Assembly (NCBI GenBank): GCA_963823665.1
Contig: CAWGMQ010000004.1
Location: 2,752,001 to 2,816,000, forward strand
Length of the DNA stretch: 64,000 bases
DNA from: an uncultured Planctomycetota bacterium
GTDB lineage: Bacteria > Planctomycetota > Planctomycetia > Isosphaerales > Isosphaeraceae
Direction: 5' to 3'
Shown here: positions 33,191 to 35,924 of the stretch, in pieces
How positions within the stretch are numbered: position 1 is the stretch's first letter
Layout: each line of letters begins with the position of its first letter
Notes under the pieces: generated by a model
Seen by the model: only the letters and a program-made list of their open reading frames with translations
Told to the model about the DNA's origin: nothing
Databases searched by the model: none
Translations under genes and position numbers: made by a program

Positions 33191-33481
33191 GCGGCGCAGT
33201 TGTTCGTCTTCGTGGTCGGTCGCATTGCCGATCTACTCGAGCTGGATTACGAGGCTCTTGGTATGACTACGTGGAGACGGCCCGACATGGACAAGGGGCT
33301 CGAAGCGGATCAATGCTACTACATCCACAACGCGGCGCTTGCCAGGGGGCGTGAGGAGTTGGAGCTGGAGGTCGATCCTCCGCCCGACCTGGCGATCGAG
33401 GTCGATATCAGGTCGAGCTCGCTCAATCGAATGGGCGTTCACGCCGGTTTGCGAGTACCAGAGTGGGAAACGAAGCCATGA
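33191..33481 (+). pseudogene. Internal fragment of a Uma2/DUF820 endonuclease-family gene
   Basis: GMTTWRRPDMDKGLEADQCYY, PPPDLAIEVDI, GLRVPEW; lacks both termini. Confidence 0.8.
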
Positions 33482-34065
33482 CATTGCGGCTGGAAGAAGC
33501 CATGCGCTTCGCGGCGCAGGCTCAAGCCGGGCAATTGCGGAAGGGGAGCGACACACCCTATTTCGAACACCTCGCCGCCGTGGCGCTGATCCTCGATCGG
33601 GCGGGCTTCTCTGAAGACGTGGTGATCGCGGGCCTCTTGCATGACGTCGTCGAGGACACGCCCGTGAGTTTCGAGGAGGTGGCCGAACTTTTTGGCGCGA
33701 CGATATCGGACCTCGTCCGGCATTGTTCCGAGGTCAAGACCGACGAACTGGGCCACAAACGACCCTGGATCGATCGCAAACTGGACCACATTGACGCCCT
33801 GGCTACTGCGCCGATTGAAGCCCGCGGCATCATTCTGGCCGACAAGCTTCATAACCTGATTTCGATCGAGCTGGACCTTCGAGACGAGCGCCCTGTCTGG
33901 GGGCAATTTCACGCTCCGCGGGAGCAAGTCCTTTGGTATTATCACGCTACGATCGACATTTGCGGACAGGGTGATCCGCGGCTGGGGCGATTGGCGGTGT
34001 CATGTCGGGACGTGCTGGCGCGCGTTGAGGAAATTGGAGACGAGATACCGGACAAAGCGTGTTGA
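33478..34065 (+). CDS. HD-domain protein (Mesh1/small alarmone hydrolase-like)
   Basis: GQLRKG..PYFEH, AGLLHDVVEDT, ADKLHN. Confidence 0.85.
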   Translation: MTLRLEEAMRFAAQAQAGQLRKGSDTPYFEHLAAVALILDRAGFSEDVVIAGLLHDVVEDTPVSFEEVAELFGATISDLVRHCSEVKTDELGHKRPWIDRKLDHIDALATAPIEARGIILADKLHNLISIELDLRDERPVWGQFHAPREQVLWYYHATIDICGQGDPRLGRLAVSCRDVLARVEEIGDEIPDKAC

Positions 34066-34307
34066 GGCAAAAAATCCGCGGGTCCGAAGCCATTATGGCT
34101 GCTGAATCAGTCATCGCGTCCGAAGCCGAACGTGACACTTTCGCGGCGTACGCTTGATCCTGCGGTTCCGGTAAGATAAATTGATCTTGTCGGTCGAGAC
34201 TTTGGTACGCATACGGCCGGCTTTCGTGTCGTGCTAGCGTGGCACGACGGACTAGAGCCCGCACTTGCTCGAGGCTGGTCTCTGGCGGGTCCGGGGAGGC
34301 TAGGAAC

Positions 34308-34462
34308 GAAAGGAGGTGATCGCGTGTGTAGTGATAACCAGGGGCGGCTCGCCTAACGGCAGCCGACGGGTTGCCCGTCGGGCAGCCGCAACTCTTGACC
34401 ATAACCTTACGGTTGGGATCGGCCAGGTCTCTGGCCTTCGGGTTCGGGGCCTGGCTGAATCC
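34308..34462 (+). other. Structured element: extended SD, 10-codon mini-ORF (34324-34356) and two hairpins
   Basis: gaaaggaggtgatc; GTG-start MCSDNQGRLA*; ccgacggg-ttg-cccgtcgg; long UUCG-capped hairpin at about 34416-34462. Confidence 0.55.
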
Positions 34463-34514
34463 TTCATCGTGGGACTGAATTGACCGTGGTTTGAATTTGC
34501 AGAGGTTGATTTCG

Positions 34515-34634
34515 TTGCGTCACGCGTGCACAGAGAGTCTGTACGGTCTGTTTGCTTATCGCACCTGGCGGTGGTCCTGGGTGTTTACCAGGCTCACAAC
34601 CGTTCGCCGGGCCGAGGATGGAGTGTCACCTTAA
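34515..34634 (+). CDS. Aromatic-amino-acid attenuator leader peptide (39 aa)
   Basis: agagg SD at 34501-34505, TTG at 34515: MRHACTESLYGLFAYRTWRWSWVFTRLTTVRRAEDGVSP*, with 2 Tyr, 2 Phe and 3 Trp within 15 codons. Not in the ORF track. Confidence 0.78.
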   Translation: MRHACTESLYGLFAYRTWRWSWVFTRLTTVRRAEDGVSP

Positions 34635-34666
34635 CTCCACTCGACTTCCCAAAACACACAGTAAAG

Positions 34667-34704
34667 GCCCCGGCACCTTTCTCAAGGTTCCGGGGCTTTT
34701 TTTT
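34667..34704 (+). terminator. Intrinsic terminator (attenuator 3:4 hairpin) in the DAHP synthase leader
   Basis: gccccgg-c-acctt-tctc-aaggt-t-ccggggc followed by 8 T. Confidence 0.9.
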
Positions 34705-34777
34705 CGGGATGCATCGCCGAATGACTCCGACCGATTCGATGCGCGACGACTTATCCGCAAACGCCGCATCTCGCAGC

Positions 34778-34863
34778 ATACCAACCCGAAGCGTCAGCGA
34801 GGTTGTGGCATGCAGGGCTGGTTTTTTCCTCCCAGATCCCTCGCTGGCGCTTCGGGTTAGTGT
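34778..34863. repeat. Inverted REP pair (family A)
   Basis: ataccaacccgaagcgtcagcgagg ... cctcgctggcgcttcgggttagtgt. Confidence 0.8.
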
Positions 34864-34910
34864 CGGAACGAAGACTTTCAATCAGTAACCTTTTTGGAGG
34901 GCGGTCGACC

Positions 34911-35924
34911 GTGATCGTGGTCATGAAACCTGACGCGACAGCCGCACAGATCGAGCACATGGCAACACACATCGCCTCACTGGGACTTACGCCCCAGGTG
35001 ATCCATGGCACACACCAGACCGTCATCGCTGCACTCGGCGAGGAGCGACCGGGGCTGACCGAGGTCCTCGAGCCGGGTGAGGGGGTCGAAAAAGTCCTGC
35101 CCATCATGGCTCCGTACAAGCGAGCGTCTTCCGAGCTCAAGCACGAGCGCACCGTGGTGAAAGCCGGCGAGCTAGCGGTCGGCGGCACCCGGGTCGCCGT
35201 CATTGCCGGACCCTGCTCCGTCGAGAGCGAAGACCAGATCGTCAAACTCGCCCGCCAGCTCAAATCCATGGGAGCAACCGGTCTCCGCGGAGGCGCCTAC
35301 AAGCCGCGCACCAGCCCATACAGTTTTCAGGGACACAAGGAGCTTGGACTCAAGATGCTCGCCACTGCGGGCAAGGAGACCGGCCTGGCCATCGTGACCG
35401 AAGTCATGGCACCTGAGCATGTGCAGATCGTATCGGAATACGCTGACGTGCTGCAGATCGGCGCTCGCAACATGCAGAACTACCAGTTGCTCCAGGCCGT
35501 CGGCGATTCGGGCAAGCCCACACTCCTCAAGCGCGGGATGAGTGCCACCGTGGATGAGTTCCTGCTGGCCGCCGAATACATCCTCGACCGCAATAATCCC
35601 AACGTCATGCTCTGCGAGCGCGGCATCCGCACCTACGAGGATCACACGAGATTCACGCTCCCGCTGGCGACCGTTCCCTACCTGCACGACAAGAGCCATC
35701 TGCCGGTGGTCGTCGACCCGTCACACGGAACCGGCAAGGCACGGCTGGTCGCTCCCATGTCCAAAGCCGCCATCGCCGCCGGTGCCGACGCCCTGATCAT
35801 CGAGGTGCACGAAGACCCCGAGCACGCGGTGAGCGACGGTGCGCAGACCATCACGCCGGCGGCATTCAAGCAGTTGATCGAGCAGTGCCGGCGGATTGCG
35901 GAAGCGGTGGATCGGACGATGTGA
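34911..35924 (+). CDS. aroF: 3-deoxy-7-phosphoheptulonate (DAHP) synthase, class I-beta with N-terminal regulatory domain
   Basis: ggagg + GTG at 34911 (MIVVMKP); [54 protein letters not shown]. Confidence 0.95.

Follow-up and report, generated by a model that had tools for sequence, protein, structure and literature searches.

The window, by which the whole 64-kb stretch of DNA analyzed here is meant, contains a gene for DAHP synthase, the first enzyme of the shikimate pathway. A sequence-only reading of the locus had assigned the gene this function, and the assignment is borne out by a match of the product of 34911 to 35924 to PRK08673 with an E value of 6e-142, together with matches to the domains PF00793 and PF18152. 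The named close relatives of the locus belong to the Isosphaeraceae and to other Planctomycetota. The gene and the features in front of it are as follows:

34154 to 34182, + strand: predicted sigma-70-type promoter (TTGATC, 17 nt, TAAATT), supported by the family alignment
34189 to 34462, + strand: separate conserved structured RNA, with a terminal hairpin that lacks a U run in the source genome (fold z of −5.11; conservation)
34324 to 34356, + strand: predicted ORF of 10 codons within the upstream RNA, starting with GTG and preceded by a 14-nt extended Shine-Dalgarno-type motif (34308 to 34321)
34501 to 34506, + strand: leader ribosome binding site, seen in the sequence; the family alignment shows a GGAG-type site ahead of the start codon
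34515 to 34634, + strand: unannotated leader peptide ORF of 39 codons with a TTG start and control codons Y15, W18, W20, W22, and F24 (frame-specific aromatic enrichment)
34564 to 34575, + strand: segment 1, over Trp codons, which pairs with segment 2 (folding, covariation)
34576 to 34592, + strand: apical hairpin capping the 1:2 domain, its loop carrying the Phe codon TTT (34584 to 34586) (double changes, TTT conservation)
34599 to 34613, + strand: segment 2, which pairs with segment 1 or, as the antiterminator, with segment 3 (folding, covariation)
34614 to 34643, + strand: small hairpin that contains the leader stop codon and lies within the loop of 2:3 (fold of −10.1 kcal/mol)
34664 to 34678, + strand: segment 3, at once the terminator 5′ arm and the antiterminator 3′ arm (folding, covariation)
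34685 to 34704, + strand: segment 4 and a U8 run, completing the intrinsic terminator (folding, covariation)
34784 to 34857, + strand: REP-like palindromic repeat with a 20-bp stem, between terminator and gene (arm motif count, fold)
34911 to 35924, + strand: gene for a DAHP synthase of type I-beta with an N-terminal ferredoxin-like regulatory domain, 337 amino acids, GTG start (PRK08673, PF00793, PF18152)

The sequence-only reading had described the TTG leader ORF behind the Shine-Dalgarno sequence AGAGG (34501 to 34505), its aromatic codons, the three helices 1:2, 2:3, and 3:4, and the run of eight U residues. All of these are present in the sequence, and the leader ORF, helices, and terminator before the DAHP synthase gene are real features of the locus. 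The computed energies in the window are −16.1 kcal/mol for the 1:2 duplex as it was first drawn, −14.5 kcal/mol for 2:3, and −24.0 kcal/mol for the terminator (34664 to 34704, with T8 at 34697 to 34704). Folding of 34490 to 34760, a check that had been suggested along with the reading, gave a z score of −2.63, with 2 of 200 shuffles equally stable. The apical hairpin around the Phe codon, a longer family version of the antiterminator, the upstream promoter, and the small RNA had been missed. A consensus terminator and promoter scanner found nothing at the locus; this result was not counted as a negative, since both a terminator and a promoter are evident from folding and conservation, and an intrinsic terminator (3:4) with a U run does stand before the gene. 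No T-box or riboswitch was among the 12 Rfam matches retrieved up to an E value of 10 for 33500 to 35500. The window scored below the gathering threshold of each of the leader families compared (Phe_leader, His_leader, Thr_leader, and Trp_leader), reaching 20.9 of 49 bits for His_leader, and one relative reached 38.1 of 55 bits for Phe_leader.

The conservation of the element was followed in 101 genomes of the family, which yielded 79 loci including that of the window (best match at least 73% identical and reaching the N terminus); one locus was discarded as too short, leaving 78. Detection required a hairpin, a U run, and an upstream stop-terminated frame with at least three F, W, or Y residues in 12 codons. 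Leader and terminator are kept in 69 of the 78 loci, 58 of them found by the rule (one in the wrong frame, corrected by eye) and 11 more by eye, where the leader is present and the U run is weaker or more distant. An aromatic-rich leader therefore does exist at orthologous loci, its absence having been named as one of the outcomes that would refute the reading, both in the family (69/78) and outside it (47/59, described below). Cultured carriers are Singulisphaera acidiphila DSM 18658, Tundrisphaera, Tautonia, and Aquisphaera. Among the remaining family loci, one has the terminator only and eight have neither part. In the former (L075) the terminator is kept and the leader ORF is absent, through either a natural deletion or an assembly error. 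The latter comprise five loci of a single genus (L077, L078, L079, L080, and L082) and L040, L072, and L076; in the five congeneric loci, the 3′ end of the small RNA is a U-tailed hairpin lying 40 to 70 nt before the DAHP synthase start. Leader and terminator were found in 0 of 12 loci of a second DAHP synthase paralog (∼50% identical), and the same detector found no attenuator before the two trpE-like genes and pheA of the source genome (3 loci). A third paralog in the source genome (L032/L034; G000:C11, about 1074040 to 1075050) matches in two pieces in different frames, the result of a frameshift or a sequencing error.

The leader is a short ORF with a ribosome binding site and a frame that is conserved as open across the family. 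When the start was taken as the best Shine-Dalgarno score among candidates of 30 to 48 codons, the 69 family leaders measured 31 to 47 codons and began with TTG in 40, GTG in 17, and ATG in 12 cases. The aromatic codons of the window leader are numbers 10, 13, 15, 18, 20, 22, and 24, with Y10 and F13 further upstream than the control codons. F, Y, and W are all present in 67 of the 69 leaders, so that codons for end products of the downstream pathway are clustered in front of its first gene. The N-terminal half is unconstrained in the family, whereas the core is of the W-W-W-x-W-x-F-T type. At aligned positions F, Y, and W interchange, which requires one to three base changes; a T or S after the F is conserved across families, and there is no fixed peptide motif beyond the aromatic residue class. 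The leader peptide matched no family in Pfam or NCBIfam.

In the 15-codon stretch that closes with the Phe anchor, the leader frame holds 367 F, Y, or W codons out of 870 (F, 126; Y, 76; W, 165), compared with 261 of 3,476 in seven genes of the window. The same zone holds 13 aromatic codons in frame +1 and 118 in frame +2, the latter with 25 stops; most of the 67 Tyr codons in frame +2 are due to the TAC inside a TTTAC that is near-invariant at the nucleotide level. The rare Phe codon TTT is favored in the leaders (88 TTT to 38 TTC, against a background of 24 to 100), as it is outside the family (126 to 34). This frame-specific enrichment and preference for TTT argue for selection on decoding, though the TGG repeats double as segment 1. 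In a chance control that took in 43 terminator-like sites, from either strand of the 64-kb window, only the one described here had an aromatic stop-terminated frame (at least four F, W, or Y in 12 codons) just upstream.

Helix covariation was read from an alignment of 58 of the 69 leader loci, the 11 divergent ones being left out. The 3:4 terminator has 93.1% of its cells paired, with 22 double changes. The 2:3 antiterminator is 91.1% paired with 9 double changes, or 87.1% with 18 in an unbulged register. The 1:2 domain is 81.5% paired with 49 double changes, of which 36 fall in the apical hairpin (34576 to 34592), where four of five pairs show them, and 13 in the lower helix. The TTT codon in the loop is kept in 57 of 58 loci. 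For each of the four counts, none of 500 shuffles reached so high a paired fraction, and slid controls stayed at or below 66%, figures to be read with the caveat that related sequences can beat shuffles, that kin are not independent, and that the structures derive from the same alignment. Consensus folding of sub-alignments gave 1:2 and 2:3 unprompted. The antiterminator proposed by the sequence-only reading is thus present in the window, but in a shortened form: the family version has 12 pairs, and segment 2 of the window has drifted from the consensus, leaving 8. The stop-codon hairpin is visible by eye in close relatives and aligns poorly across the family. A 2:3 antiterminator and a 1:2 protector that exclude each other are accordingly found, with covariation that is modest for 2:3 and the lower part of 1:2. 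The alignment of ortholog upstream regions, the other check that had been suggested, hence gave both a conserved aromatic leader (69/78) and covarying helices (58 loci).

Beyond the Isosphaeraceae, 47 of 59 loci taken from other families of the Planctomycetota, including anammox bacteria, have both leader and terminator. These comprise 18 of 19 loci from a sample of the phylum (one short locus excluded) and 29 of 40 chosen to span the families of the class, for which the threshold was four aromatic residues per 12 codons. F, Y, and W all fall within 14 codons in 41 of the 47 control windows. An in-frame ATG was found by script in 40 of the 47 loci and is visible in the sequence in three more. 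In 27 of the 47, pairing between the end of the leader and the 5′ arm of the terminator exceeds that of shuffled sequences (P ≤ 0.05). Many of these leaders sit directly behind a TTGAC-type promoter, without the upstream small RNA. One family has Tyr-rich leaders of 10 to 30 codons; two full-length matches to hydrazine synthase alpha in each of the three genomes tested identify it as anammox bacteria. A nucleotide profile of the Isosphaeraceae element matched 20 of 60 outside loci at an E value of <0.01, almost all within the class, 0 of 12 paralogs, and none of the anammox loci. By this measure, homology of the element is established within the class; beyond the class, what is shared is the same anatomy at an orthologous gene, and the sequence does not demonstrate common descent there. 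In one large family of the class, most genomes have no ortholog of this DAHP synthase (7 of 42 at an E value of ≤1e-112), and no attenuator was found before six weaker paralogs in three ortholog-lacking genomes. In genomes without an attenuated ortholog, one paralog (loci L255, L256, and L257) lies directly behind a gene, the end of which presumably resembles prephenate dehydratase.

The predicted promoter lies ∼360 nt upstream of the leader start, and a matching promoter is found at equal distance in 74 of the 75 family loci that hold the core of the small RNA. In the stretch separating small RNA and leader, candidate internal promoters were found in only 9 of these 75. Judging from this arrangement, promoter 34154 to 34182 likely serves the whole unit and the small RNA is likely read through into the leader; the attenuator in Isosphaeraceae would then be reached by read-through from the promoter past the small RNA. 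Directly upstream of the promoter, 33478 to 34065 (+ strand) encodes a stand-alone HD-domain protein like the hydrolase domain of RelA/SpoT (HD_4, E value of 1e-21).

The small RNA is a single-copy element of 270 nt whose core is found in 75 of 79 family loci, and its Rfam matches were sub-threshold only, with a weak likeness to CC2171 and Ms_IGR-5. A peptide of the C-S-D-N-Q-x-R-L-A type, with variants, follows the Shine-Dalgarno-type motif in 66 of 66 tabulated loci, and an invariant stretch further upstream in the RNA could pair with this motif and hide it. The element may represent a new family of small RNAs or small proteins. It was considered as a part of the attenuator and rejected, because eight family loci have it but no attenuator, and because it also turns up at an unrelated locus in another family. 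The latter relative (L245:1370 to 1630), in another family of the class, has a promoter and a U-rich terminator and is flanked by a helicase-like ORF and a membrane-protein ORF, with no adjacent DAHP synthase. The hairpin at 34784 to 34857 was likewise rejected as a regulatory part because it is a genome-wide repeat, its arm motif occurring at 43 places in the source genome with at most one mismatch (control, 0). At a locus of the same genus (L002), only 43 nt separate the U run from the start codon.

Which codons would matter was explored by folding the RNA 3′ of a modeled ribosome before segment 3 emerges, at equilibrium. In this 3′-only model, segment 2 is mostly free with the ribosome between ∼12 codons before and 2 after the Phe anchor, a zone that coincides with the aromatic cluster. 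In the window, segment 2 is free at Tyr15 (0.88) and Phe24 (0.95), half free at the Trp codons (0.49 to 0.57), and locked at Tyr10 (0.31) and Phe13 (0.32). The claim that stalling at any aromatic codon permits read-through is therefore overstated, since the first Tyr and the first Phe of the window appear to lie too far upstream in the folding model. Of the 58 loci, 54 have a Phe codon in a permissive position, 42 a Trp codon, and 34 a Tyr codon; Tyr codons are scattered across the leaders, and Tyr sensing appears to be the weakest part of the model. When pairing across the ribosome is allowed, Trp codons fail to free segment 2 (median, 0.27 to 0.29), and a first equilibrium ribosome-scan model did not separate the states. 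With no ribosome and segment 3 out, the 2:3 helix of the window forms at equilibrium (0.76), so the switch, if real, would be kinetic.

Built on parts, conservation, and pairing that are all observed, the interpretation that we favor, with a probability of about 80%, is that leader, alternative helices, and terminator form a ribosome-mediated transcription attenuator, in which transcription of the DAHP synthase gene would rise when charged tRNA-Trp or tRNA-Phe runs short, with a probably weaker response to a shortage of charged tRNA-Tyr. Conservation, the frame-specific enrichment of aromatic codons, and the covariation of the helices give strong support in this respect to the attenuator reading first made from the sequence; its extension to stalling at every aromatic codon is not supported. 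Transcription would start at the promoter near 34154 to 34182 and pass through the upstream small RNA, and a ribosome would initiate at the weak TTG of the leader. A stall on the control codons, from ∼12 before to 2 after the invariant Phe, would place the ribosome over segment 1 and the apical hairpin, leaving segment 2 free when segment 3 emerges, so that 2:3 would form and the polymerase read on. With no stall, the ribosome would run through segment 2 to the stop codon and 1:2 would re-form behind it; 3:4 would then form and transcription end near 34700. For the kinetic switch step, the established behavior of trpL and pheL serves here as the model. One leader might in this way act as an OR gate for the pathway end products at the first step.

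A rival reading is an attenuator that senses one amino acid only, through the Trp run or the invariant Phe TTT, with the other aromatic codons neutral or related to pairing. It has a precedent in Corynebacterium aroR, where the Phe-Tyr-Phe leader is reported to respond to Phe and not to Tyr (PMC11802643), and here the TGG repeats do form segment 1 of 1:2 and TTTAC is near-invariant as nucleotides. We nevertheless consider it unlikely, given that all three residues are found in 67/69 family leaders and 41/47 outside control windows, and that the mix shifts by clade, from Trp-rich in Isosphaeraceae to Tyr-rich in anammox leaders, a pattern indicating that selection acts on the class of residue.

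The anatomy could also belong to an arrest peptide stalled by a free metabolite, or the U-starting codons might report tRNA modification rather than charging. Ribosome stalling by the nascent chain in answer to a free metabolite occurs in TnaC; in the present leaders every control codon starts with U, U-ending Phe and Tyr codons are preferred, and F is followed by T or S across families. A peptide whose motif is not fixed beyond the residue class, and whose N-terminal half and length vary (31 to 47 codons in the family and 10 to 30 in anammox bacteria), makes this very unlikely, and end-product codons before a biosynthetic gene, with a stall leading to the antiterminator, fit charging. Slightly less probable still is a constitutive terminator that ends the small-RNA transcript, with the ORF untranslated and DAHP synthase made from its own promoter or by a fixed leak. 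The strong conserved promoter and small RNA upstream, the terminal hairpin of that RNA without a U run in the source genome, and the weak start codons (TTG 40, GTG 17, and ATG 12 of 69) would suit this explanation. In other families, however, the same leader, mostly starting with ATG, and the same terminator immediately follow a promoter, the small RNA being absent, and at some loci 27 to 45 nt separate the U run from the start codon, too little for a DAHP synthase promoter. The frame-specific aromatic enrichment and the covariation of segment 2 with segment 3 also count against it.

As a ribosome-mediated attenuator, the element would work like trpL and pheL in all features that can be tested in sequence, while by score it is a member of no Rfam leader family. 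It shares with E. coli pheL (described in PMC3082878) and trpL, and with Phe_leader RF01859, His_leader RF00514, and Thr_leader RF00506 as described, the four-segment logic, control codons in segment 1, and an intrinsic terminator. Those leaders answer to one or two amino acids and precede branch-specific operons, whereas the planctomycete element stands at DAHP synthase, and, unlike in pheL and trpL, its leader stop codon lies 3′ of segment 2. Attenuation of DAHP synthase is itself not new, since it is known in Corynebacterium and Acholeplasma from the accounts available. The aroR-aroF attenuator of Corynebacterium glutamicum (Neshat et al. 2014, as related in PMC11802643 and PMC4046766) has a Phe-Tyr-Phe leader in which the Tyr codons are described as without effect. 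Like it, the planctomycete element has a mixed aromatic leader before DAHP synthase, with ribosome-mediated attenuation that is known there and proposed here. Unlike that Phe-responsive leader, as it is described, the planctomycete leader has Trp codons, dominant or present, and it belongs to another phylum and, compared by description, precedes an enzyme of type I-beta with a ferredoxin-like domain. The uORFC-13-1 motif upstream of aroF in Acholeplasma, a predicted Phe uORF with a terminator known from 24 representatives in one genus, likewise places a uORF and a terminator before DAHP synthase, but with a Phe-only U run and, in the available part of its description, no set of alternative helices (PMC8632094). 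In Shewanella, predicted RNA motifs upstream of aroF and aroH were proposed as an attenuator at DAHP synthase (PMC2659441); they are gammaproteobacterial, involve a proposed role of Tyr-tRNA, and come with no mixed Trp/Phe/Tyr leader in the portion of that account at hand. The difference from known DAHP synthase attenuators would therefore lie in Trp codons alongside Phe and Tyr and in the phylum-wide spread.

The statement in the sequence-only reading that no planctomycete attenuator of this kind had been characterized agrees with a search of the open literature, subscription papers and thus the large comparative attenuation surveys lying outside it, which returned neither a planctomycete attenuator nor a Trp-bearing one at DAHP synthase. 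An attenuation survey of 2010 reportedly made no prediction outside a set of phyla that excludes planctomycetes. Rfam 15 likewise showed no such element. Generic leader ORFs have been counted in planctomycete genomes, with no DAHP synthase leader named in the text, methods, and four supplements of that study, as far as these were available (PMC4833913).

The element extends classical attenuation to a phylum in which neither the open-literature search nor Rfam 15 turned one up, and annotation gains from it a small gene so far unannotated and a new RNA family. Its leader may integrate three amino acids, whereas the one tested DAHP synthase attenuator is described as answering to Phe alone. Tentatively, and at somewhat less than even odds, it could be read as a phylum-wide ancestral OR gate with three inputs (Trp, Phe, and Tyr) at the entry to the shikimate pathway, from peat Isosphaeraceae to anammox bacteria, replacing separate trp and phe attenuators. 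An attenuator needs a ribosome right behind the RNA polymerase, and such a gate, if true, would therefore be genomic evidence for tight transcription-translation coupling. According to the accounts in PMC6212462 and PMC6554331, coupling in planctomycetes has been disputed since a 2014 report on Gemmata, with a spatial separation of transcription and translation being claimed. In cultured strains the element would be a ready reporter and a functional test of coupling, and, if the OR-gate reading is true, the loss of the attenuator in some lineages would mark where the claim of separation can be tested.
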